NCBI GenBank assembly: GCA_044892525.1
Contig: CM097885.1
Location: 189,100,001 to 189,164,000, forward strand
Length of the DNA stretch: 64,000 nucleotides
Direction: 5' to 3'
Source: Schmidtea polychroa
Taxonomy: Eukaryota
Positions 1 through 52,440 of this stretch are shown piece by piece (position 1 is the stretch's first letter; each line of letters begins with the position of its first letter). A program made the translations under genes and the position numbers. The notes beneath the pieces were generated by a model that was given only the letters and a program-made list of their open reading frames with translations, had not been told where the DNA came from and searched no databases.

Positions 1-3000
1 GTTAAATCTTTGCTTGTGATCTGAGGTTCTTTATAAATTTTTATATTTCTCGGTAACTTCTGAGCTTCCTCTGATTTGATTTTTGTTAATTTTCCCAATT
101 TGGTTTTGGGCTTTATTTCAACGGATCTTGCACTATAATTCGCTATTCTAACTGGTACTGACTTATTTTGGACTTTCACTACTTCATCACACATAGGCAC
201 ATCGTATTTTTCAACCAGCTTTTGATTTGGCTCAAATATGTACTCCTCATCTGAGATCCTCATAACATCTGCATAGTATATTACTTCGCTTTTTGGTGGT
301 ACTTGCAATGTTTGGTTTAGAAATACCTCTCCTACTTCAGGCACTACTTCACCCATTTGTCCTTTTATTAGTTTTCCAGTTCTCAGATCAAGAGAGATTC
401 CATGTAGTTGCTCCATGACATCCATGCCAATAAGACATTTTACAGGACTTTTTCTCATCACTGATACCCAATGAATTATTTCTTGATCTCCAATTATCAG
501 TTTAACTTCTAATTTTCCAACAATATTTAGTGCATTATGTGACATTGATTTAATAATGTGATTCGTTGGTTTTATTTTGGCTTTCTCCTGATACGTCAAG
601 AAACTTTCCGCTACTATAGTATGACTTGAGCCTGAGTCTAATAAAGCTTCCACTTTTCTCTTGTTAAACTGTATGTTTATTCGAGGTTGTTTTCCTCCTA
701 CTACTGTTGTCATTAGTGCATAGCTGCATGGTAGACCAAGCATATTCTTTCTTTCAATTTCAGCACTCGTTGGTTCAATCTTCTCTAATTCTATTGTGAT
801 ATTATCGACCGATTTCATCTCCTTTAGTTTTTCACTTGGATATACTGGTGCTGTTGGTCTAAATGTCGGGGTATACCATCTACTAAGAGTATCAATCCCG
901 CTTAATTTTGGCATTGGTTCAAGCAAGAACCTGGACTCTGGCTCTACTTTACTCTTTATTACACTTTTTCGAAAGCATTTATGCTCCGATTCCCCGTTGT
1001 TGTTATCATCATTATGATCGTCGTTTTTATCTTCCGACTGACACGTAGATTCCTCACTTTTCCGGCCATTTCTTAATTGTGCCCTTACTCTTGCCATTTC
1101 TTTAAATTGATGATCTGTAATAAAGAATCTAGCCAACAATGGAATACAACCAATAACTAATTTCCATGACCATCCCGATATTGCGTATATTCGATGTACT
1201 GACAACATTTGCGACACTACCACCTTTGCCGTTATCATAATCACGTAAATTCCAATTAAACCTGCACATGCTTGTCCCAAAAACATGAACTTGCCCCAAA
1301 TCTTTTCCATCGTTTTATATGTAGCTCGTTTGAAATGATCAGGTGTTAGCAAATTTTCGTAATTTACTGTTCCTTCTCCATTCGGTAATACTGTGTCAAT
1401 CATTTCTGAAATTATCCGTTCCTTTTTGGATGGAAACAACAAATTCCTTTGAGCTTCTTCGATATCTTCGCTTGCATACAAGCCCATTTGTGCCATTTTG
1501 TTTAGTGATGTGAAATTTATCAGGTATTCTAAATTTGTTAATTCTAGTTTGTCTGGAGTCTTGACCCCACGATAATCTGGTAAGGCTATCCATGAATCTG
1601 TAGCTAATCGGTATAAAGGGGCTAATAATCGATTGCATTGCAAAAGTTTTGGTTTAGTTTGTTCATCAAGCAAGATTCTAGTTATCGGTTCCATAAATCG
1701 TACCTTTCCCCCAAAGCTTACTGGTAATTCATTCGTACATTTTTCGTATTTGGCAATTTTCACTGTGACTTCTTTGCATTTGTAACTGTATAATGCTTCT
1801 CCAAATATTCTCGCAAACACTCCATTTTCTGATATTAGCATAGGTGCTACTAAATTTGGATTCGTAATTGCCATCGCCATCCGATTTCGGAGAATCTCTT
1901 TATTCAACTTACAATCGTTTAGAATCATTTCTCTATATACATTTTCCATGATGTTTTGACTAAAATGAAACAAATAATCAATTTTATTATTAAAATAATG
2001 AGTAAGTTTAATGTCATCTCTGTGAATTTTAATTTTTGCTTCTTCCACAACATTTCTAGACACGTAAACACCTTCATAATTTGTTACATATACCATTCGA
2101 CCACATTTATTTGTGATTTCCTTTTTTATAAATCGCATTCCATCTGCTGGTAACGTAGACATTAAAACTGTTCCCATTTGCTTTGTCCATACTGGGGTTG
2201 ATTTAATGGTATTATTTGGTCTATAATTCATATTGAAATTATCTGGTTTATCTCTAAACTGTTCTCCTACTAGCTCTTTAAAGTTCATAGTTTTTAAGTG
2301 CGCTAAATTACACTTATTTGTTTCTACATTATAAACAAGAATCGATTCCCCTGTTTGACAATGTGTTTGTTTCATATTACAGAATGGATGAGTTTGTAAT
2401 TTTCCCGTATCATCATCGAAAGCTCCTTCGAACTCTCTCAACTCCGTGAGATACTCTTCTAGCACCACTGTTTGCTGAATAATTTTACCGTTCATTTTAT
2501 ATGGTTCACCTTCACAGTCGCCATTTGCTTTCATAACTCCCTTTACAATTATTGTTTCTCGTATTCTATGGTTCAATTTTGCCTTTAAACGAATTTCTGG
2601 ACTTATTTTTAATTCCCCTGTTTGAAATGCTGCTAGACAGTTTTCTGGAAGCACCTCGACTGGCCTAGGTATCGCATGCATTTTTATGAGTGACGTATGG
2701 CTCCATTTACCACAATAGAATACAAATGTTGTATGTTTGACAATACACTCTCTCACTTGAGTTCTTCGCAGATCAGACTCTTGATACACATAATATTTTA
2801 CGTCATTTTCTATTTTTAAACTGCTCGGATACGCACCTGGGCATTCCGACATATCTACTACCGAATAAACTTTTCCCATTTCAGTTTGGGAACAATCGTA
2901 CGCAACTAAAGATGATGTCTGTGTAATTATTGCACAAAACGTAATCACCATAAACATCGCCCATGGAAATATCATAGTTTTTCTTAGTTCTGGCTTAACT

Positions 3001-4760
3001 CTTTCATTTACTCGTCTTTGGGGTGGACTCATTTCTTGCTTCTCATTTTTCTTTTCTGTTAGAGATGAACACAGTGTTTTCCAACCACCTTTTTCGTTTA
3101 CCCAGCTCATTAAATATTCGTTTACTAGCCGGGCAGCGATGTCTATCAAATTTTCTAACTTGTCTGACCTTGCGAACGTATGCGTTCCAATTTCTAAAAC
3201 AACATAAGTTAAAGCTATTATTATAACTTCCTTATTAATTTCATTTTTTGCCAAATTTTCAATTACTGATCTCTCGCAAAATGTATTCTCTTCGCCAAAT
3301 TTCTGCATCACTTCAGGAAGCCTATTCTTCATCTCTTTAACTATTTCTTTCAGTTCATCATCTACCTCTACTTCTATGTCGAACATTGGATATACTGCTT
3401 TAACGAGATGTTTCAACATTTTCTTAGTTTCGTCGACGTCCTGTTCTAGCCTCACTAAATATTTCTTTATTTCATATAAAGTTCTAACTTCCTTATTTTT
3501 GATTTCACCATTTATTTCGCCTTCAGGTACAAGTGGCTCTCCTTGTACGTCTGGTTCTGTGGACTGATCTTTGTTATCAGGATCTTTTTGCTCATTATCA
3601 CTAACGATTTCATCAATTTCTTTATTTCCCTTAACTGTTTCCTCTTGTTCCTCTGTGTCAGGCTTGTTAGACTCAATATTTACTTCTAAACTCACTCCTT
3701 TTACTACGACTATATGGTTCACTAAATATCCCACTCGTCTGTCTCGGATCAAATATCCGTTTTCATCCAGCTCTTGTGGTACACACCCACAATCATATAG
3801 GTATTCATCATCGTCAAGTTCTTCACCTTTGTACATTACTATAATAATTCCATCTTTTCCCAGCGTTTCAGCCGCTCTCTTCCGCAATTTTCGGACCTTT
3901 GCACACCAATGCTCGTCTACATATTCCGTTTTGCCATATCCCTCATAATCTAATGCTATCAAAAATGGCTTTAACTCTACTCTTGCCTTTCTGAGCTCCT
4001 TGCCCAATCTTTGCAATAAACTTCTTAATAACTTGGCATATCTGGTTTTCACATGTAAATATGGTCGTATTGCATTCACTATTTTTAGTTTATCGTTTTC
4101 CTCCATTTCTAATTTCTCAATAATCTGTAACTTCTCATTGATTTCATCTTCATCTCCAATATATAACGCATCATTTAATTCCTCTAATATCTCCCTTGAA
4201 TTCCTTTTGTCTATTATTTTACTACTCATTATTTCATCACTAGTAATTACATTTTCCATTTTTAATTCATTTGTACTCCCTGGTATAAATCCACAATCTA
4301 CCAAAAATTCGTCATTTTCTAACAATCTCTCATTAAATCTCAACTCTATCATGCATCCTTCCTTTTTTTCTTTTAATTTATTCTTTAAATCATTTACACA
4401 ATCATTTGCCTCACAACGACAACATAATACACTTTTATCAATCTCATTTACTACTTCCACAAAGATGGAATCTAACCCTGTTTTCTCTCTCAAAGCTTTT
4501 CCAAATATTTTCATTAATTCTTTAATTTCTTCTTTATACTTTGGATTCATATTATAGTAGTTAACGCACAAGCTAATTACACTTTTTATCTTTCTCGTAT
4601 TCAAAGATATTTGACTTAATTCTCTCAACGATTTGATCACTTTAGCCGACTCTATTTCATTATTTCCAATTAGTTTTTCGATTCTGGTCATTATCATTGT
4701 TGCTTTTTCACTTTCTAAATCATCTTTTATAACTCTCCTTTTCGACTCTTTTTCATTCAT
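1..4760 (-). CDS. Partial polyprotein (>=1586 aa, no stop before the window edge): Ubl x2, Bcl-2-like domain, signal/anchor, chuvirus-like glycoprotein with TM, aspartic protease, post-protease dUTPase-fold-like spacer
   Basis: Hand translation of every 60-nt line from ATG 4760 to base 3 shows no in-frame stop. Begins MNEKESKRRVIKDDLE. EYLMSWVNEKGGW (W553/W560); MIFPWAMFMVITFCAIITQTSSLVAYDC (aa596-623); FYCGKWSH; CTNELPV...FMEPITRIL; WGKFMFLGQACAGLIGIYVIMI (aa~1155); KVEALLDSGSSHTIV (D1375, nt 636-638); CLIGMD; VPPKSEV...VPVRIANYS...KTKLG. Absent from the ORF track because it lacks a stop codon. Confidence 0.92.
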   Translation of the reverse strand, partial: MNEKESKRRVIKDDLESEKATMIMTRIEKLIGNNEIESAKVIKSLRELSQISLNTRKIKSVISLCVNYYNMNPKYKEEIKELMKIFGKALREKTGLDSIFVEVVNEIDKSVLCCRCEANDCVNDLKNKLKEKKEGCMIELRFNERLLENDEFLVDCGFIPGSTNELKMENVITSDEIMSSKIIDKRNSREILEELNDALYIGDEDEINEKLQIIEKLEMEENDKLKIVNAIRPYLHVKTRYAKLLRSLLQRLGKELRKARVELKPFLIALDYEGYGKTEYVDEHWCAKVRKLRKRAAETLGKDGIIIVMYKGEELDDDEYLYDCGCVPQELDENGYLIRDRRVGYLVNHIVVVKGVSLEVNIESNKPDTEEQEETVKGNKEIDEIVSDNEQKDPDNKDQSTEPDVQGEPLVPEGEINGEIKNKEVRTLYEIKKYLVRLEQDVDETKKMLKHLVKAVYPMFDIEVEVDDELKEIVKEMKNRLPEVMQKFGEENTFCERSVIENLAKNEINKEVIIIALTYVVLEIGTHTFARSDKLENLIDIAARLVNEYLMSWVNEKGGWKTLCSSLTEKKNEKQEMSPPQRRVNERVKPELRKTMIFPWAMFMVITFCAIITQTSSLVAYDCSQTEMGKVYSVVDMSECPGAYPSSLKIENDVKYYVYQESDLRRTQVRECIVKHTTFVFYCGKWSHTSLIKMHAIPRPVEVLPENCLAAFQTGELKISPEIRLKAKLNHRIRETIIVKGVMKANGDCEGEPYKMNGKIIQQTVVLEEYLTELREFEGAFDDDTGKLQTHPFCNMKQTHCQTGESILVYNVETNKCNLAHLKTMNFKELVGEQFRDKPDNFNMNYRPNNTIKSTPVWTKQMGTVLMSTLPADGMRFIKKEITNKCGRMVYVTNYEGVYVSRNVVEEAKIKIHRDDIKLTHYFNNKIDYLFHFSQNIMENVYREMILNDCKLNKEILRNRMAMAITNPNLVAPMLISENGVFARIFGEALYSYKCKEVTVKIAKYEKCTNELPVSFGGKVRFMEPITRILLDEQTKPKLLQCNRLLAPLYRLATDSWIALPDYRGVKTPDKLELTNLEYLINFTSLNKMAQMGLYASEDIEEAQRNLLFPSKKERIISEMIDTVLPNGEGTVNYENLLTPDHFKRATYKTMEKIWGKFMFLGQACAGLIGIYVIMITAKVVVSQMLSVHRIYAISGWSWKLVIGCIPLLARFFITDHQFKEMARVRAQLRNGRKSEESTCQSEDKNDDHNDDNNNGESEHKCFRKSVIKSKVEPESRFLLEPMPKLSGIDTLSRWYTPTFRPTAPVYPSEKLKEMKSVDNITIELEKIEPTSAEIERKNMLGLPCSYALMTTVVGGKQPRINIQFNKRKVEALLDSGSSHTIVAESFLTYQEKAKIKPTNHIIKSMSHNALNIVGKLEVKLIIGDQEIIHWVSVMRKSPVKCLIGMDVMEQLHGISLDLRTGKLIKGQMGEVVPEVGEVFLNQTLQVPPKSEVIYYADVMRISDEEYIFEPNQKLVEKYDVPMCDEVVKVQNKSVPVRIANYSARSVEIKPKTKLGKLTKIKSEEAQKLPRNIKIYKEPQITSKDL
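1110..2975 (-). other. env: Chuvirus/Jingchuvirales-type (class III fusion) envelope glycoprotein domain within the polyprotein
   Basis: Hydrophobic leader then AYDC; VRECIVKHTTFVFYCGKWSH; GDCEGEPY; DCKLNKEILRNRMAMAITNP; GVFARIFGEALYSYKC; KCTNELPV; MEPITRIL; QCNRLLAPLY; GLYASEDI...LLFP; TM plus SGWSWKL tail. By recall this Cys/motif series matches chuviral G and retroelement-captured copies. Confidence 0.85.
3050..3430 (-). other. Bcl-2-like helical domain within the polyprotein
   Basis: SVIENLAKNEINKEVIIIALTY...LENLIDIAARLVNEYLMSWVNEKGGWKTLC aligns by eye to Bcl-2 BH1-BH2 ([22 protein letters not shown]...[21 protein letters not shown]). WxxxxGGW is present; the NWGR motif is absent. Confidence 0.65.
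3690..4466 (-). other. Two ubiquitin-like (beta-grasp) domains within the polyprotein (~4250-4466 and ~3690-3965)
   Basis: IFVEVVNEIDKSVLCCRCEANDCVNDLKNKLKEKKEGCMIELRFNERLLENDEFLVDCGFIPGSTNELKM and ...KVRKLRKRAAETLGKDGIIIVMYKGEELDDDEYLYDCGC follow the ubiquitin pattern IFV...TIENVKAKIQDKEG...[28 protein letters not shown]. Confidence 0.6.
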
Positions 4761-6181
4761 TCCTCTTGCGACTCATACATCATGTGATTATTGTAGTCCT
4801 CTTCTGATTCAAACTTTGACATCAATCGATCCAAACGTCGACCCATTTCTCTCACTTCGCTTTCAATTCTTTCATTAAAATTATCTGGCTGAATAAAAGC
4901 TACATTATCCATCTGCGGTTTGTCACTCTGAAACCTAATCGATTTCTTTAATATGGGCCTTTGGAATTTATCCATATTTCTTGGACATGATCTAGCCATG
5001 TGTCCATAACTTCTGCATGAATGACATTGAATTTGTCCTTGTAGATTTACTTTATCTCTCTGCGGTGATGGTGATGTTGATCTTGATCTTGACCTGGCAA
5101 AACAATTTCGTGACACATGCCATTTTCTTCCGCAATTAAAGCATTGTAAGTTATCATTAGTTCTCTGCTCATTAATGTTCGCTTTAGTGAAACTTTTCGC
5201 ACCATTTCCTTTTAACCAATCAGGCCACATTTGCCTTGGACTCCGTTGTACATTATTTTTGGACCAGCATTGATTGCTGTCATGTCCCATTCTTTGGCAA
5301 TTATCACACTGAATCGGAATTGGGCTTCTCTGTATTCTATTTTTAAACCAGCATTGGTTAACATGGTGTCCAATCCTTTGGCAATGACTACATTGGATGG
5401 GACCTTCCTTTCCATCTATTTGAATATCTGTTGACTTGTTCGACTCAAATTTGGATCTAAATTTTGGTGATGGACTACTTGTTTGTTGAAAACGATTGTT
5501 TCTAATTGGGGTTACTGATCTTTCGCTTGCGCCTGAGATGACTGCAAACGACTCTGATTTTGACTGTGTGCTTTTTAAATTTAGCTCAATTTTCATTGCC
5601 TTTTTGATCAATTCATCAAAGTCATTAAAATCAACATAGCATAAAGCCTTTTTAATTTCTTTCTTTACTCCTGACAAGAATTGATCCTGCAATAATTCTT
5701 TTAACTGCTTTGCCATCTCGGCCTGTTCTGGTTTCACTTCGAACGCTTTCTTTGCAAGAGTTGATAAATGATAAGCAAACTCACTTACCGATTCCTCTGG
5801 CTTTTGTACGCGGTTATAGAATTTCTGTCGCATTATCCGTTTGATATCCCCTCCGATTAATTTCGTGGCTAAAGCGTCTTTCAATTTGGTCCAGTCATTT
5901 GCTACTATTCTTTTATCAATTTGTTGCCACGCTTCTCTGGCTGCTCCTTTTAGGTATAGCGGTAATCCTTGCACCATTATCGATTGGCTCCATCCATAGG
6001 CCGTCGCATACATATAGTAATCTGCCATAAAATCGACAAATTCCAGCGGATCTCCACCGTACTGATCCACAGGTAGTTTTTGACAACTCGCATAATCATT
6101 GCCTTCCTTGCCGTTGCCCACCGTGGACACAGGTGTTTCATCATTGTTATTTGTATTATTGGTTAGTCTTTGGGTACTCAT
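4757..6181 (-). CDS. gag: Gag (capsid plus four CCHC zinc knuckles), ~474 aa from ATG 6181 (track ORF starts at 6259 on a non-ATG codon)
   Basis: LPLYLKGAAREAW, RVQKPEESVSEFAYHL, QDQFLSG; knuckles CSHCQRIGHHVNQC, CDNCQRMGHDSNQC, CFNCGRKWHVSRNC, CHSCRSYGHMARSC; stop TGA at 4759-4757. Confidence 0.93.
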   Translation of the reverse strand: MSTQRLTNNTNNNDETPVSTVGNGKEGNDYASCQKLPVDQYGGDPLEFVDFMADYYMYATAYGWSQSIMVQGLPLYLKGAAREAWQQIDKRIVANDWTKLKDALATKLIGGDIKRIMRQKFYNRVQKPEESVSEFAYHLSTLAKKAFEVKPEQAEMAKQLKELLQDQFLSGVKKEIKKALCYVDFNDFDELIKKAMKIELNLKSTQSKSESFAVISGASERSVTPIRNNRFQQTSSPSPKFRSKFESNKSTDIQIDGKEGPIQCSHCQRIGHHVNQCWFKNRIQRSPIPIQCDNCQRMGHDSNQCWSKNNVQRSPRQMWPDWLKGNGAKSFTKANINEQRTNDNLQCFNCGRKWHVSRNCFARSRSRSTSPSPQRDKVNLQGQIQCHSCRSYGHMARSCPRNMDKFQRPILKKSIRFQSDKPQMDNVAFIQPDNFNERIESEVREMGRRLDRLMSKFESEEDYNNHMMYESQEE

Positions 6182-6575: not shown

Positions 6576-7485
6576 TGTTGGGTTTTTAATGCAAGTCGGT
6601 ACTACGGTCTGACTCCTTTGTGTTCTTTTCCAAATAAATAAATAAATAAATAACCCAACACAAAATCTTTATTGACACTGATGCAGTTACACTTTTACAC
6701 TTGTATTAGTTCACTCACACTTGATACAATCAGGTTTTGTCTGCACTTTTCAATTTGCCAACAAATCTCACGCAGGGGTAGATCTTCCAACGGGAGATAT
6801 CCCTTTCTGGTACGTTCGATCTTTTTAAATGGTTTAATTTCTACTAACTTTAATATTTCCTTTTTCGCTCTCGTCAAACTTCTATTTTCTTTTCTTCGAC
6901 CAACTGGCATTTTGTTTTCTTGCCAGTTGCTTTTATACTCGCTTGGTAATTGACTTTATTTTTGCCAATTATTTTTGGTTTTATTTCCCCCCGGGCTTCC
7001 TCTTGGAGGTCTAATTTAATTGAAGGGAATTTGTTCATTTTCTTTGACGGCGCTTATTACTTTTTATCAGGCTAAATTAATTGCCTTCCCAAAATTGGAT
7101 TTCTCCGGCTAAATTAATTGCCTTCCCGAAATTGGATTTCTCAATTCGCTCGGGTTTTCCATTGTATCGGGTTTCCCATTAGCTCGGGTTCTCCATTAGC
7201 TCGGGTTTCCCATTAGCTCGGGTTTTCCATTAGTTAATTAATTTTTAATTAATTTTTGTTTTTTGTAATTTATTCCTTTTAGGGACCCCCCATTGATTTT
7301 ATTTTATTATAGCTGAACTCGTCTCATTATTTAGCATCCGCCCATACCAGTTTCCCCCAGAAAATATTCATTTTTTAAAATTTTTGATTTTTAATTAATA
7401 TTTTGTACTTTAAGTTTTTATTTTGAATTTGGTGTTTTTGTCAATTTTCACCTCATTTTTGTGCCTCTCTTGTTGAACCCCAACA
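6576..7485 (-). repeat. 5' LTR (~910 bp) of the env-bearing Gypsy element
   Basis: 7-bp inverted termini TGTTGGG/CCCAACA; adjacent PBS; internal short tandem repeats (two ~37-bp units, about five 17-bp CTCGGGTTTCCCATTAG units); colinear homology with the solo LTR at 19769-20607. Confidence 0.88.
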
Positions 7486-9792: not shown

Positions 9793-10647
9793 ATGAACAA
9801 ACCTGCTGAGACAGCTAATAAACAAATCAAATGGTATTATGGTGGCATATCGAGCACATTGGCCATTGGTGCAACACATCCTTTAGATTTAGCCAAAGTA
9901 CATTTACAAACTTCAAAAGCTCAATCGAAAGGATTAATCTCGGTATTTATAAAAGTAATCAAGAGTGATGGTGTTTTGGGTTTGTATAACGGTCTTAGTG
10001 CCAGTATTCTCCGCCAGATAACTTACTCTTTCCCTAGGTTCGGACTTCATGATTGGTATAAAAATACAGTATCAAAAAAACGAAAAGTAACAGTCTTGGA
10101 AAATGTTATCGCTGCAGGTTTCGGTGGTGCAATTGGAGGTATAACTGGAAACCCTGCCGACATGATTAATGTTCGTATGCAAAATGACATGAAACTTCCA
10201 GAAGCATCTAGGCGAAATTATAAAAGTGCTTTTCATGGATTGTTTCAAGTTGTTAAAAATGAGGGTTTTAAAGGATTATTTAGTGGAGTGACAATGACTG
10301 CAAATAGAGCTATCCTTATGACAATTGGTCAAGGTGCTGGTTATGATCAAATGAAGTTAATTCTCCTTTCGACAAATTTATTTGACGATAATCCAGCAAC
10401 ACATATATTGAGTGCGTTTGGTGCAGCCGGAATAGCAACGTTTCTGACACAGCCTTTCGACGTTATGAAAACCCGATTAATGAATGCTCAAGTTGGTCAA
10501 TACACGGGACTGGGACATTGTGCTAAAGATATTTTATTGAATGGTCCGTTGGGTTTCTTTAAAGGAATAGTACCAGCATTTGTCAGAATAGGACCTCACA
10601 CAATTTTGTTATTCATCATTAAAGAACAATTGATAAAATACTTTTAA
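9793..10647 (+). CDS. slc25a10: Mitochondrial dicarboxylate carrier (SLC25A10/DIC-like), intronless, 284 aa
   Basis: WYYGG...THPLDLAKVHLQT, LRQITYS, NPADMINVRMQND, RAILMTIGQ, QPFDVMKTRLMN, FVRIGPHT; three carrier repeats; ATG-to-TAA intact; AATAAA downstream (~10696). Confidence 0.88.
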   Translation: MNKPAETANKQIKWYYGGISSTLAIGATHPLDLAKVHLQTSKAQSKGLISVFIKVIKSDGVLGLYNGLSASILRQITYSFPRFGLHDWYKNTVSKKRKVTVLENVIAAGFGGAIGGITGNPADMINVRMQNDMKLPEASRRNYKSAFHGLFQVVKNEGFKGLFSGVTMTANRAILMTIGQGAGYDQMKLILLSTNLFDDNPATHILSAFGAAGIATFLTQPFDVMKTRLMNAQVGQYTGLGHCAKDILLNGPLGFFKGIVPAFVRIGPHTILLFIIKEQLIKYF

Positions 10648-12274: not shown

Positions 12275-12850
12275 ATGGCTTCGATTAATACAGATATTTA
12301 CTATGATCATAAATGCAACAGGGACGTTCACACATCTCAGGTTGGTAAATGTGTGACGTGCAATGATGGATTTATTGAAAGAATTGAATCTGATAACTCA
12401 ATGGAAATGATGACGATGCCTTGAATGTTTTTCATCTCATTTGTCATATTCTTGGTGGAAGTACTACAAACGAAACTGATGGTTCCTTTTTTATTACTCC
12501 AAGAGATCCTGATAACAGAAATAGTGTTTTTGGCCAACTCATATCAAATTTATTTGGTGGATTGCTGCCGCTGTATTTTAGATCCGATTCGTCAGATTAC
12601 ATATTTTCAGATCAAAGTTTCGACAATTTTGTAACGAGTATTATGAATCAATTTGAACAGAGTGGTCCTCCGCCAGCAAATGAGGCAGATATTGAGAAAT
12701 TACAAGTCAAGAAAATCACCGCAGCTAATGATACAGGTTCCATTTGTCTGTCAGATTATGAGGTGGCCGATGAAGTGTATGAGTTGCCCTGTCAGCACAG
12801 ATACCCTGTTCAGTGTCTAAAAACGTGGATGATTAAACATGGTAGCAGAG
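12275..12850 (+). pseudogene. RNF126/RNF115-like E3 ligase fragment (Zn-ribbon plus truncated RING-H2), intronless, frameshifted
   Basis: MASINTDIYYDHKCNRDVHTSQVGKCVTCNDGFIERIE; [37 protein letters not shown]; [35 protein letters not shown]; RING breaks before the last CxxC. Confidence 0.8.
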
Positions 12851-12857
12851 CGTGGTT
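12840..12857 (+). promoter_or_regulatory. Primer-binding site, initiator tRNA-Met type
   Basis: TGGTAGCAGAGCGTGGTT preceded by AACA; matches the metazoan tRNAiMet 3' complement pattern TGGTAGCAGAGnnTGGTT. Confidence 0.8.
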
Positions 12858-13182
12858 CCCTTCAGGGGGCTACGCACCAATGTTGCAGTGGAGACAGCCC
12901 TGGCTGATCAATGGTGAATTAAATATTTTATTTACATTTCATTTTCATTTTATTTGCATTGCATGTATATTTCATTTTGAAGTTAAATATGTAAAATCAA
13001 CCATCCTTCCTTCCTTATCGAGCGTGAAAAAGTGCTGCTATGGGCCCCAGCACTCTTTTAAAGTGGGTAGCCAGGGGAACAGTTTAAAGAAAAAGAAAAT
13101 CAAAACCTCAGCGTTTTTGCGAGCTAAGTCAAGGGTGAGGGCGAGCAGGGTAATGGGTTTTGAGTTTCGATTGAAAAGTAGG

Positions 13183-13409
13183 AAGCAAATATTTATCAAA
13201 ACTCTTACTGGTAAGACAATTACTCTTGACGTTGAATTGAATGACACGATTGAAAATGTAAAAGAAAAAATTCAAAGCAAAGAAGGAATTTAGGAAAATT
13301 ACAAACGTTAGTCTATGTGGGAAAGCAATTAGAAAATAAAAGAATATTGAACGATTATAGCATACAAGTAGGTTCGACATTTCATTTGTCACTCAGGCTG
13401 TGCGGTGGC
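13183..13409 (+). pseudogene. Ubiquitin domain fused to the N-terminus of BEL/Pao Gag (one stop, one frameshift)
   Basis: [36 protein letters not shown]...[34 protein letters not shown] continues in frame into [25 protein letters not shown] (gag). Confidence 0.85.
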
Positions 13410-19521: not shown

Positions 19522-19768
19522 ATGTTGTATGTTCAGTGGATTTCATGTAATACTTCTTGATTTTGTTTCATTTTAATTTATTTTTGAATAAATAATATTT
19601 GTGTTGAGTGTTTAAATGTCTTTGATTTTAGCTCAATTTAATGTTATGTTTGAGTACTATGTCCCGACGTTTTTCATCCACAATTCAACTACTTGAGCTC
19701 AATATCAGTTCTAGACCAACACAACAAAGTTCAGTATAAATACAGACTAAAAATTCATTTTTTCAACT

Positions 19769-20607
19769 TGTTGGGTATTTTATGCAAGTCGGTATCACTG
19801 TCTGACTCCTTTGTGTTCATTTTGAAATTAAGTTAAACAACCCAACACCAAAATCTTTATTCTAGACTGATACAATTACTTTTATCAATTACACACTTTA
19901 ATGAAACAACCACAATTTTCAACAACTCTTTTGCTCTGAACTTTTCAATATAAATCTGAACCTTGCACAGGGATTAATTTTCCAACGGGAGATGTCGCTT
20001 TCTGGTACACTCGATTCGAAAATGTTCAGTTATCACTAAGTTCAAAGTTTTCTTTGTTTACTATTGCTAAATTATTCGCTTACGTTTCTTCGACATACTG
20101 GCAATTCTGTTTACTTTCCGTCGTTTTTATACCCGTTTCGTAAATTGATTTTTCCTTGTCAAGTTATTTAGAATCCAATTTCATCAGGTTTTCTCTTATC
20201 ACTCTAATTAATTTGAAGAATTTTCTCGTCTCTTTTTCTCAATTTAATTTCTAGTTGGCCGAATTAATTGCATCTAATAATTTGATTGACCATTCTATCA
20301 TCACTCGGGTTTTCCATATTTTCGGGTTTCCCATTACCTCGGGTTCTCCATTAGCTAATTATTTTTTAATTAATTTTAGTTTTTTGTAAATAATTCCTTC
20401 TAGGTACCCTCCATTGATTTATTTTATTATATATGAACTCGTCTCATTGTTCGGCATCCGCTCATACCATTCTCCCCCAGAAAATATTCATTTTTTAAAT
20501 TTTTGATTTTTTAATTAATATTTTTGTATTTTAAATTATTATTGTGAATTTGGGGTTTTTATTGATTTTTCATCTTACATTTGTACCTCTCTTGTTGAAC
20601 CCCAACA
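19769..20607 (-). mobile_element. Solo LTR of the env-bearing Gypsy family, 4-bp TSD AACT
   Basis: TGTTGGG...CCCAACA termini; AACT at 19765-19768 and 20608-20611; colinear, diverged homology with 6576-7485. Confidence 0.9.
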
Positions 20608-22999
20608 AACTAGTTACAAAAAACTTAACTTGTTTGTTAATTTATTTCTCAATTTGTAAATTACGAAACTTGGTCTCAGTTTTCAGTAATAGTGAATTTT
20701 ATGCATTGGTGATAAGTTTGTTTTCTGTATAAAGTAATTATTAAGTAAAGTAAACAGATTTTAACTTTGGATTTAAATTATTTTGTTGTTCTTTTTGTTG
20801 AGGTTATAAAAAATTAAAAATAAAATAAAATTATATTCGCATTGAGAGAGGTACAAGACTAGTCAAGAAGAGAAGTGACAATGCGAAGAAATAAAATATC
20901 CAAAGACAGCCCATAAAGTATGATGTAGCCAACTGATGAAAACACCTTGGGGAATACCACTAGCAGCTCCTCGTTTGAGTTCAGAAGTTAGTCGAGTGGA
21001 GCGAGGAATTTGGTCCTTCAGTAGATTGGCCTGGCGGAATTTAAGGGTGTAATGCAGTCGGCTCTTATGCTAAATTATACCATAATTCCAATGGGTTGAG
21101 TTTTCATTTGGAAGCCACAGCATAGTTAGAAACTTGTAATTGTTTGGAATCCAGGGGGACAAATATGGACAGATCTGTTCACCAGAGTCCCGAACAGTGG
21201 ATGGGGAAAATCCATGAAGGTGGAAAACCTGGATGACCGTCAGGTCGGCCAGGCAGAGAAAACTCAGTGATTAACCCTTCTAGAACTTTTGCGTCACGTG
21301 TGTTATCTGAGTTCTAGAGAGTGGTAGGAATAAACTAAAACATCTACGGTAAATAGAATTTAGAAAATGACTGTCTCAGACAAATAGTAATAAGATTCCA
21401 CTTAGGTCAGAATTCGAAATATAGCAGATCCCAACTCAAATTTTTCAAAGAGAACACTCTAATAACATCAATAATTGTAGGAAATCTAGGACAGAATTTA
21501 TAAAATTTGAAATAAGGGAACATTCCTGTGAAAATTTTCGTAAGTAACGTTGAATAACATCAAATAATGAGTACCATAATTAATTAAAGGAAGAACAATA
21601 ATTTAAGAAAGGGATAGACAATGAAAAGTGATGTAAGACCTTCCATCAGTAGTTCAGGATTCGAAAAGAAAAGACAATGAGGATTAGTTCTAGCATTAGA
21701 GCAGACCTGCTCATTGATTTTCAGCCACTGTGTACATTATTAACATGGTTGTTGCCATGGGCACACAGATGGGTAAAAGTAAATATCATGAAGGCGTTTA
21801 GAGAAGAGTCAATGACAAATCAATAAAAACCCTAGAAAATTTAAATGACCACCCTCCCCAAGCGCCAAAAGTATACTAGTTTTTTAAAATGTCTCATTAA
21901 TGTCTTCAATTCACATTCAAGTTTTCAAAAGCACATGTAGCATTAAAGAAGGAGTAGTTTAAACGTTGCCCACTGCACTACTTGATATTTACAATTCTAT
22001 GTGCAATTGAATTTCATTTTCACTTAATAACTATTAACAATAACGTGTTTTTGTTTGGCTTTTCCGGTTTATTAAAAAGCAATCTTCATTATTATAATTT
22101 GTGTTTTAATTAAAGTTTAAATTGTTATTTACATTTCACACATTATATTAGTTTTTTAATTTTTTAGTTTTCGGCACCGCGAAACATTTGAGGTTTTCAA
22201 TACACTACTAAAAATATTTACATTGAGTCAAGTATTACACTTCATGAAATTAAAAAATTTACATAGTTAAATTGTACATAGAATTTAATTTAATTTTAAA
22301 ATAAAAAGTTGATTTTTTAATCTATTTTTATATATTGTTTTATGACGAATAAAATAATTTATAAATAAAAATTTTATAATATATTTACGTTTGAATGAAA
22401 AATAAAGTCAAATATTAGATTTGACGTTTACTAACTCAATAACGAAACAATTATATATTTTATTTTGTTTAAAACGTCTATCGAGAATATAAATTTCAAA
22501 TGTAATTAACGAATTTAAATTGTACAAATCTATTTGAAACAGTAAGAATTATAGTTTTAATTTACTAATTTTACATGTTTTATGAATATTTAATCAAATA
22601 AATGGAAAATCAGTATTTTAAAATTTATATTTCCCATAAAATATTTATCAAGTCGTCATTATTTTTATTTTTAGTTAACTAAAAGTGTGATTATAAAGTC
22701 ATCTGAAATGTATAAATATTTATATTTTCTACTGAAATTCACAATATAAATGTTAATCTTAAAGGTAAAAATATTTCTAGGTATATTAGTAAAATTTTAT
22801 ATACAATATTTGCTATATCTATGGTTAAACGAATATAAATTATGTACAATAGTTAAGGTTCTATACTCAATATTTGATTTTAATATTTAGGATATTCTAT
22901 TAATGAAAGATTTTTTAAATAAGTGTAAACAAAATTGTACAACTCCATCATAAGATTCCATACATTTTTAAAATTAAATTTTTTCATTTCAACATAATT

Positions 23000-46960: not shown

Positions 46961-47089
46961 TGAACTATCAAGGGCATGCGTGTTGTTTAATCATGTTAAG
47001 TTTATGTCGACGCCTATGGACAAATTAGAGAGCTAAAGGAGCGTATACTGCACAAGTACAGTGAGTGGAAAATGCAAAATGAAAGGGCA

Positions 47090-48630
47090 AAATTCTAGAA
47101 GATTTACAAGACACTATATGTCGGGAATAAAGATGAAATTAATACAAGTATCAACTTCATCATGAGCACTGAGATGGATCGAGGTATGAAAGAAAGATTG
47201 TTTGAATGCATTTTACCTTATACCAATAAACCGACAAGTTATCTTGCGAAGTTAAAAGAGGTAATCCGAAAGTTAGGACACGATTATGGGGTGGCGGACA
47301 ATAATGCAAAGTCTTTGATGATAGCGTTGAATACTTGAGATCAAAGAATTGAATATTATCAGGAACATTGGAGCGTAAAGGTAAAAAAAATACGATAAAA
47401 AGTAGTGGAGATATTGGGTAACGAAGGAATTATCGTGTTGACGTTCAAAGGACGAGTTGGGTGATGATGAATACTTACTGAATTACGGATGCAATCCAAA
47501 TTTTATTAATATATATGCAACAAAGCAAAGTGATGAAATGAAAAGGGATGCCGTTTTGGCCTCCGTATGAGGAAACGGATAACGATAGTGCAGACAGGAG
47601 CTAACACGAATTGCGTTGAATAGAGATGTAATATTGAGAGTATTAGCGTATATAGTTGTTGACAATTCAAAATCGTTAATAACGAAAGCCACTAAAATGA
47701 CGAATGAATATTTGATGAATTGGATAACAAATAATGGCGGATGGAAGAATTTAATACAAAAAGAAAAGCCCAAAATTAGAGACAGTAAGAAAAAAGGGGA
47801 AATTGGCATTTCCGTGGTTGATGATGTCTGTTATCATGTTATTGGGAATAATAAACACTAGAAACTACTGCTTCCAAACTGAAATTGGAAGAGTATATTC
47901 TTTAGTGGATGTAGCAGTGTTCAGATGCATAACCAGTAAAGTTCATAGTGAAAAATCCCGTAAAATATCACATGTATCAAGAATTTGGTTTCGGCGAGCA
48001 AATGTGAGGGAGTGTACAGTCAAAGGAACCACCTTTGTATTTTATTGCGGTAAATGGGCCCACTCATCAATGGTGAAAATGCAATCGATAACTAGCTTTC
48101 CAAACGGGACAACTGAAAATTAATGCAGATATCAAATTGCAAACGAAATTGAACCATATAATCCGTGAGACGGTGACAGTGAGAGGGATGATAATGTCGA
48201 ATGGCGATTACCAAGGAGAACCATACAAAATAGACTTTGCGATAATCGGCAAAGCCTTTGTCAGAGTATTTGTCAGAACTAAGAGAATTCGATGGGTCAT
48301 TTGATGACGATACGGGTAAACTACAGGCGGGCCCGTTCTGGAACATGAAACAATCTAGCTATCAGACAGGGGAATCAATCTTAGAGTATGATGTCGATAC
48401 GAAAAGGTGCAATTTAGTGCAATTGAAGTCAATGAGTTTTAAAGAAATAACGGGAGAACAGATCAGGGAAAAGCCTGAGAAAGTAAGGATGGATCCAGCA
48501 ACAAGTGCAACAACCAGAATCATCCCTTTACGGATGAAGGACAATCCAATCGTGTTAATGTCAATCTCGGCAGAAGATGAGATGCGATTTCTAAGAAAAG
48601 ATACGAAAACAAAGTGTGGACGAATTATAA
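47090..48630 (+). pseudogene. Decayed, divergent copy of the Ubl-Bcl2-like-Env polyprotein (5' part)
   Basis: ILEDLQDT/LYVGNKDEIN; EHWSVKVKK...GNEGIIVLTFKG..LGDDEYLLNYGC; EYLMNWITNNGGWKNL; MAFPWLMMSVIMLLG; VRECTVKGTTFVFYCGKWAHS; EYLSELREFDGSFDDDTGKLQ: same order as in 4760-1900. Confidence 0.88.
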
Positions 48631-49391
48631 AGGGATATATGTTAGGTTCTGATCTGGTAGAAAGATTCTTCCTAACACAGATTATATCTGACTCCAAAGA
48701 TATAAAATTTAAAATATGTGCGCTTAGATATATAAATAATTTAATATGGATTAAACAAGACGTTTATTTTCTAAAGATTTATTGTGCATAAAAAAAACTA
48801 TATAATAAGTAATAATTGTGTTTCTCCAATAATCCCGCTAAATACTATAAGAAAAGAATATCGGTTGTCCAAACCGTCCTCAGGTATGAGGCAAATGCTG
48901 GATCTAATTGCTCACAGCACTGTATTTGAAGTTAAGGACAAGATGAGGGAGGGATTATCAGAATTTTTCGCTATCGTCTAGATCAAGATTGATCTAGCGT
49001 TTCCTAATATTTGACCCTCTCGATAACGAGTAAGGCAGGCAGAAATGCTGCTTCTCGTGGTCGGGTTGAGCAATTTAAAGTTAAATATAAGAAAATCAAG
49101 TAACCTTATGGTTAAGAAATTCTTTTCTTTCGACAAAGTGGAAATGCTTGTACAAAATTTGTTATAATTTAGTGGTTATGACTATATTATTATGAATATA
49201 TTCATTTTCTATGGCAACAGCTGGTATTAATCTAGTGAGTTAATTCTCGTTGAGTTATATTGCTTTTTAAGCACAGCTGGTTATTCTCTGAACATTGCTG
49301 TTTAATCAATATTGATTTTCAGCTTAGAACAAATTTTATTTCCTTTTCTTAACTAAAAGTCCATACGTATTTATATTAATTTACTAATTAT

Positions 49392-52025: not shown

Positions 52026-52440
52026 ATGTTACATTCGGGAGATCTAAAATTGACAAATTACTTCAATAACAAGATAGATTATCGGTTTCATTTTGGTCAA
52101 AATAACGTTGAAAATGTATACCGAGAAGTTATTATAAACGACTCCAATCTCAATAAAGAAATACTCCAAAATCGGATGGCAATGGCTATAACCAATCCCA
52201 ATTTGGTGGCCCCAATGTTGATTACAGAGAATGGGGTGTTTGCCAGAATTTTTTGTGAAGTACTTTTGGCTACAAATGTAAAGCTGTGCCAGTCAAACTG
52301 ACAAAGTATGACCAATGCTCCAATGAATTACCAGTAAATTTAAATGGAAAGCTGCGATTTAAGGAGCCTGTGACACGAATCTTACTGGAATATGATGTGA
52401 AACCTAAAGTCTTACAATGCAATAGAATTGTTTGACCATA
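52026..52440 (+). pseudogene. 3' continuation of the decayed chuvirus-like env
   Basis: DLKLTNYFNNKIDYRFHF...NKEILQNRMAMAITNPNLVAPMLITENGVFARIF; then NELPV and EPVTRIL: near-identical to 2000-1650 in translation. Confidence 0.9.

Follow-up and report, generated by a model that had tools for sequence, protein, structure and literature searches.

Two described systems stand closest to the element analysed here, which lies in a 64,000-nucleotide stretch of Schmidtea polychroa DNA (assembly GCA_044892525.1, contig CM097885.1, positions 189,100,001 to 189,164,000; hereafter the window). The first comprises Smed_errantivirus_1 and Smed_errantivirus_2, which the available part of PMC13524379 describes as GAG-ENV-POL errantiviruses of Platyhelminthes of the HSV/gB type. 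The second is Burro, for which the available part of PMC6431247 describes one polyprotein in which a Ubi2/SUMO-like motif between MATH and BCL-2 is followed by an in-frame Env and then by protease, reverse transcriptase, RNase H and integrase (PR-RT-RH-IN); the same text already proposes that Burro meddles with apoptosis and ubiquitination. In the accessible portions of two further reports, PIWI control of Burro1 is shown (PMC8532177) and work on Burro1 IAP is cited second-hand (PMC13465017).

The element in the window belongs to a family, referred to here as family A, of 16.6-kb Gypsy errantiviruses with 0.9-kb long terminal repeats (LTRs) and is near the published Smed_errantivirus_1. It has the LTRs, the Gag and the gB-type Env ahead of PR-RT-RH-IN that define gB-type errantiviruses and, like Smed_errantivirus_1 and _2, is a Gypsy element with this Env between Gag and Pol (PMC13524379, part available). 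The 251-amino acid (aa) Env segment listed there for Smed_errantivirus_1, for which the listed span is 14.8 kb, is approximately 79% identical to the window Env as counted by eye, and the segment listed for Smed_errantivirus_2 is near our family B (see below). In the available main text and supplements of PMC13524379 the terms 'Bcl' and 'ubiquitin' do not occur, nor do 'Ubl' and 'SUMO' in the supplements, and the accessory block is unannotated there. As in Burro/GYPSM1, the region that separates Gag from Pol in family A encodes a ubiquitin-like domain (Ubl), BCL2 and Env in frame. However, RT-RNase H is 50% identical between the two, and Burro/GYPSM1 exceeds 30 kb and has an open reading frame (ORF) of approximately 4,900 aa with MATH, BIR and ankyrin domains, whereas family A is 16.6 kb with a 3,437-aa frame in which Pfam finds no MATH, BIR or ankyrin.

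Here, we report that family A carries two copies of a compact unit of approximately 165 aa that consists of a four-helix bundle and a divergent Ubl, whereas a Burro-like giant element of the same genome has one. A Ubl ahead of Bcl-2 and an in-frame Env is already known from Burro (PMC6431247, part available). What is new is the duplication of the unit, its clade-wide helical partner and the weak resemblance of this partner to the TFIIS N-terminal domain (TFIIS-N) and the LEDGF integrase-binding domain (IBD). In the literature searched the tandem helical-Ubl unit is undescribed; the Dev Cell 2026 paper on Burro1, Grohme 2018 and supplements lay outside this search and may describe it. The Ubl-Bcl-2-Env block noted in the giant Burro elements is shown to be central to a broader group of planarian errantiviruses that are compact and very abundant.

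A repeated unit of a helical bundle and a ubiquitin-like domain

The two units occupy the following positions in the window:

4479..4721, minus strand: H1 (aa 18-98), the helical bundle that opens unit 1 and aligns with H2 and other families
4245..4478, minus strand: Ubl1 (aa 99-176), divergent and without GG, assigned on sequence evidence
3987..4208, minus strand: H2 (aa 189-262), the four-helix bundle that opens unit 2, with helices modelled by AlphaFold
3696..3965, minus strand: Ubl2 (aa 270-359), predicted beta-grasp, from AlphaFold, Foldseek and profile evidence

A preliminary description of this DNA had recognized two divergent Ubls from an internal repeat. The repeat is real: its local score is 63 compared to 25.5 +/- 4.8 for shuffled sequences, is reached by 0/5000 shuffles, and no other non-overlapping window of the ORF scores above 40. 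In the window 3-4772 (-) frame, ENDEFLVDCGFIP of the first copy occupies aa 152-164 as described, with IFVEVV starting at aa 103 and GSTNELKM at aa 165, and DDDEYLYDCGCVP of the second copy is found at aa 320-332 instead of aa 315-328. The helical bundle preceding each Ubl belongs to the repeat and had been overlooked.

Based on an alignment of 16 rows, AlphaFold models aa 183-362 as four helices and a beta-grasp (predicted local distance difference test score (pLDDT) 81; predicted template modelling score 0.70), with a low-confidence insertion of approximately 19 aa ahead of strand 5 of Ubl2 (window 3720-3776) that family B is without. Foldseek matches the Ubl2 model to ISG15, SUMO and ubiquitin at probability 1.0, and the VIA fold search likewise yields Ubls. 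A profile of Ubl2 orthologues without Ubl1 rows finds ISG15 at E 0.005, and a profile of all units does so at E 1e-5. By its predicted model, Ubl2 has a beta-grasp fold. Ubl1 on its own matches ubiquitin in Pfam at E 0.01, under the cut-off, polyubiquitin in the PDB at E 0.009, and SUMO-like/ubiquitin clusters in Atlas at 0.93, where window Ubl2 on its own reaches just 0.88; a profile of Ubl1 only, from families A and B, reaches ISG15 at E 0.003, Ubls accounting for 14 of its 18 matches. By these matches, Ubl1 is a ubiquitin-like homologue, and both Ubls are real. Of the beta-grasp check that the preliminary description had proposed for both domains, the part concerning Ubl2 is borne out by the model, and Ubl1 is backed by sequence comparison only.

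Several observations weigh against reading the two domains as Ubls. Window Ubl2 on its own finds nothing in Pfam or the PDB, and rows of Ubl1 were present in the alignment behind the Ubl2 model. Single-sequence AlphaFold of both Ubls gave an overall pLDDT of 45 with a low-confidence strand-strand-helix for Ubl1, and Foldseek with this two-Ubl model found no match at E <= 0.001. Finally, the curated PF00240 cut-off of 25.4 bits was unreached, the best scores being 21.2-21.6 bits with all of the element's own Ubls below.

Among known folds, the two domains resemble type II Ubls (the ISG15 domains, the SUMO-like domains of Rad60, and those of Rad23, ubiquilin and BAG6) in having a predicted beta-grasp, a hydrophobic core and no C-terminal GG. 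The Ubls of ISG15 are in tandem, whereas those of the element are approximately 90 aa apart and lack the Ile44 patch; because identity is just 12-18%, the high ranking of ISG15 points to no special kinship.

The helices of H2 in the AlphaFold model span residues 7-23, 26-38, 43-56 and 64-80. Direct similarity between H1 and H2 is weak (reached by 136/5000 shuffles; hhalign probability 6%); each of them aligns with library proteins, mostly ending in (L/Y/F)-G-x-x-(L/I/M)-R. Units and families are 14-24% identical to one another. A BAG1-like identity was considered and rejected, given that the helix precedes the Ubl and that short helices make up the bundle. Searched as a profile, the helical part gave only scattered weak matches to PDB sequences and Pfam. 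The helical half, modelled in H2, is similar in length and helix layout to the TFIIS N-terminal family (TFIIS LW, MED26, LEDGF IBD; PF08711), with a weak profile and fold resemblance that stays above controls at an hhalign probability of 1.5-3%; however, the T/S-x-I-G signature motif of this family is absent and no match to the family is significant. We consider it unlikely that the helical half is a TFIIS-N-terminal domain of the TND/LW, LEDGF-IBD-like type and that the unit, using the Ubl as a SUMO-like second handle, works in the nucleus as an adaptor linking the element's integrase or transcription with elongation factors of the host. The fuller scenario, in which a captured TFIIS-N/LEDGF-IBD-like domain fused to a SUMO-like Ubl forms a core gene of a whole clade of env-bearing flatworm retroelements, is duplicated in this lineage and serves as a LEDGF-like adaptor through which integrase or element transcription is coupled, in stem cells, with elongation factors of the host, we regard as distinctly unlikely. 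Should the helical half be an adaptor of the TFIIS-N/IBD type, the element would itself encode the equivalent of a host cofactor that lentiviruses borrow. Separately, this genome has an expanded set of near-identical loci with a TFIIS-N domain (PF08711; including L118, L119 and L121-L128), many of them clustered on C2, with 26 matches in all.

The units are internal to one Gag-Env-Pol polyprotein

In the preliminary description, an Env-Pol polyprotein was taken to begin with the two Ubls. In the window copy, the Ubl-bearing frame runs over window 3-4772 (-) with the Gag ORF and an LTR upstream, and a break separates the Gag and Ubl frames near window 4757-4772. Among 40 distinct family A loci picked by likeness to the window copy, 37 were informative for Gag, Ubl1 and Ubl2 motifs and 3 were missing a motif. 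Gag and Ubl1 are in one open frame at 34 of the 37 informative loci, the window copy being among the three exceptions, and the break is not present in contigs from 3/3 public runs. The break is a defect of the window copy, and since Gag and Ubl1 are in frame at these loci and the public runs do not share the break, both Ubls are internal to a single Gag-Env-Pol polyprotein and do not head it.

In one copy of 16.6 kb with LTRs that are 99.8% identical, the 3,437-aa open frame spans Gag, zinc knuckles, the Ubl region, Bcl-2, Env, PR, RT, RNase H and IN by Pfam. The normal product is a single Gag-accessory-Env-Pol polyprotein of approximately 3,400 aa. Ubl2 is 97-100% identical across all scored family A matches (150 of 1,440 candidates), 17 of which have the exact 3,437-aa open frame by manual count. 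Family A is young and abundant, with at least 150 near-identical matches. The remaining parts of the window copy are:

6576..7485, minus strand: 5' LTR of 910 bp, TG...CA, then a primer-binding-site-like stretch
4757..6181, minus strand: Gag with Retrotrans_gag and CCHC zinc knuckles (Pfam E 1.5e-7 and 1.3e-7)
3483..3686, minus strand: acidic linker (D/E at 22 of 68 aa), the least conserved part compared to family B
3063..3410, minus strand: Bcl-2-like domain (Pfam PF00452, E 1.5e-4, under the cut-off)
2916..2981, minus strand: hydrophobic segment, aa 598-619, by hydropathy
1128..2900, minus strand: gB-type Env (Pfam PF24664, E 2.7e-88) with a transmembrane segment at window 1227-1292
402..692, minus strand: aspartyl protease, start of Pol (Pfam RVP, E 3.7e-6)

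Orthologues in a third family, family C, match the Bcl-2-like domain in Pfam at E ~2e-5, and in the genome comparison no host Bcl-2 locus is prominent as a recent donor. Env is bracketed by hydrophobic segments at aa 598-619 and aa 1161-1182 (hydropathy), the first of which likely serves both as the tail anchor of Bcl-2 and as the signal sequence of Env. Pol of the window copy is broken and its similarity to the element ends past RNase H (L021:8531-10000). Within family A, a separate 496-aa ORF lies downstream of integrase (L054:5492-6979 (+)), its sole Pfam match being DUF7881_N at E 0.009.

Distribution and history of the unit

The sister family, family B, has both Ubls and both helical bundles, and its Ubls are 31-50% identical to those of family A. 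One decayed copy is present in the window:

47075..48746, plus strand: H2, Ubl2, Bcl-2 and the start of Env of a family B copy

This is the copy 2 of the preliminary description, and the motif GDDEYLLNYGC, noted there for copy 2, sits at window 47460 (+) in this second element. In another family B copy (L062:1527-2990 (+)) the Bcl-2/signal segment is in frame with the post-protease region, and Env and protease are missing. Family C, with an ORF of approximately 3,050 aa, and a Burro-like giant of the same genome, with an ORF of approximately 4,800 aa, each have one helical-Ubl unit between zinc knuckles and Bcl-2. Two family C subfamilies, compared through L102 and L097, have an Env identity of 21% and adjoining domains that are 62-84% identical; L102 may be misframed or misaligned here, or Env may have been exchanged.

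When 1.84 billion representatives were searched with a profile of the unit, 189 matched at E <= 0.001. From the best 150 of these, 14 whole-unit proteins were chosen by match range; most of the remaining listed matches cover the Ubl part only, and two that were checked are poly-Ubl proteins. Pfam matches to Gag, zinc knuckles or Env occur in 8/14 whole-unit proteins, all 14 resemble the elements described here by BLAST, and by these two methods none of them is shown to be a host protein. Two matched stretches are present in P0001, P0002, P0016 and P0119. A related polyprotein of the library, P0028, combines the unit with Env and several aspartyl-protease domains. Searches for homologues by word index were blank at E <= 0.001; this negative is weak, and relatives did come up in the full profile search.

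In a tree of 13 units, unit 1 of families A and B grouped together (100/97), as did unit 2 (92/94). Because the unit 1s and the unit 2s of the two families pair in this way, the duplication predates the A/B split. Whether it was a gain in A/B or was followed by loss elsewhere is not separated by this tree (p-AU 0.26, long branches).

Conservation and a candidate binding surface

Among 39 family A loci, shared variants are 9 synonymous and 3 non-synonymous in Ubl2 and 8 and 7 in Ubl1 (site ratios about 1:4), and singleton variants are nearer neutral. Between family C subfamilies, the ratio of non-synonymous to synonymous divergence (dN/dS) is about 0.11 in both halves of the unit, with dS near saturation. 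The helical-Ubl unit is under purifying selection.

The Ubls have 9-16 identities to ubiquitin over 63-76 aligned residues. In the alignment to host ubiquitin the core stays hydrophobic, and Leu8, Ile44, His68, Val70, Lys48 and Gly75-Gly76 are not kept. GG is found in 0/10 rows examined, and no glycine past strand 5 is conserved; in the element itself, the sole GG in aa 1-640 is at aa 562 and none follows either Ubl, as the preliminary description had noted. Given the loss of the di-glycine, Lys48 and the Ile44 patch, conjugation, deubiquitinase cleavage and proteasome-decoy roles are unlikely. The earlier picture of two integral, divergent and non-conjugatable Ubls that are unlikely to be cleaved by deubiquitinases and that adjoin a Bcl-2-like domain therefore stands; the accompanying idea of a proteasome decoy does not, the Leu8/Ile44/His68/Val70 and Lys48 residues being kept in no family. 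That the Ubls are decoys of the proteasome or of ubiquitin receptors, or degrons, working through an Ile44 patch is very unlikely: the fold does match the Ubls of Rad23, ubiquilin, BAG6 and midnolin, but Ile44 is replaced by M, R, K, T, Y or Q, there is variation at Leu8, His68 and Val70, and Lys48 is E, R or V in 12/13 rows, with K in the Burro-like row only. A role of the Ubls as processing signals at which host deubiquitinases or SUMO proteases would cut, in the manner of the ubiquitin inserts of pestivirus polyproteins, is hardly credible; the fold matches do include bovine viral diarrhoea virus polyproteins that have ubiquitin-like inserts, but the missing GG and the unconserved glycine speak against such cleavage.

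The Ubl2 residues that are invariant over families A, B and C include one His and two Lys where helix 1 begins, together with acidic residues of the 50s loop, and judged from this pattern they may form a binding surface. The identity of Ubl2 between families A and B is 50%, compared to 36% for Bcl-2. These two observations, with the invariant His, Lys, Lys and Glu being exposed, make it highly improbable that the Ubls lack a partner and either assist folding or persist as tolerated spacers, as could be argued from their large divergence from ubiquitin and from the ability of fused ubiquitin to help a downstream partner fold.

Proposed role of the units

We suggest, at what we judge to be an even chance, that the Ubls function as non-conjugated, cytosol-facing binding adaptors for host proteins. 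In this model, the hydrophobic segment after Bcl-2 would thread Env into the lumen of the endoplasmic reticulum and leave Gag, both units and Bcl-2 in the cytosol, where the element's own protease may release the units. The units would bind a host partner by means of a family-specific surface, formed by helix 1 at its basic start and by the acidic loop that corresponds to ubiquitin 51-56, and would belong to a host-modulating accessory block that includes an anti-death domain. The adjacency of Ubl and Bcl-2, from which the preliminary description proposed a putative cell-survival module, is kept in all four families examined; adjacency in a polyprotein is no proof of a common pathway.

Two points count against the adaptor model. 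Candidate protease sites flanking the units were rejected, as the motif matches coincide with strand 5 and are indistinguishable from it. Moreover, clade-wide retention of the unit is equally compatible with a structural role in particle assembly, in which the unit would be a cytosolic spacer joining the capsid to the membrane-anchored Env leader, similarly to the contact between Env leader and Gag in foamy viruses. Such a spacer is a minor but appreciable possibility. In all four families the unit keeps its place after the Gag zinc knuckles and ahead of the Bcl-2/signal segment, whereas the BIR, MATH and ankyrin domains of Burro (PMC6431247, part available) are undetected by Pfam in families A and C. 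The single ORF fixes the unit 1:1 with Gag and Env. However, the variation between one and two copies and the identity of 14-24% between units and families are unusual for a lattice contact, and Ubl folds are typical host-interaction modules.

The two-domain unit of approximately 165 aa could be expressed alone for a partner search. Because Burro1 is reported to aid stem-cell survival, the small and young family A offers a simpler route to the function of the accessory domains.

Other sequences in the window

More Env and LTR remnants related to this element are present at window 52029-52438 (+) and 19759-20608. An ORF at window 12643-13293 (+) ends in a near-canonical N-terminal piece of ubiquitin that is unrelated to the divergent Ubls; the fragments just downstream of it are what we take to be a BEL/Pao-like Gag-Pol. 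An intronless ORF of 284 aa at window 9793-10647 (+) presumably encodes a mitochondrial-carrier-like protein.
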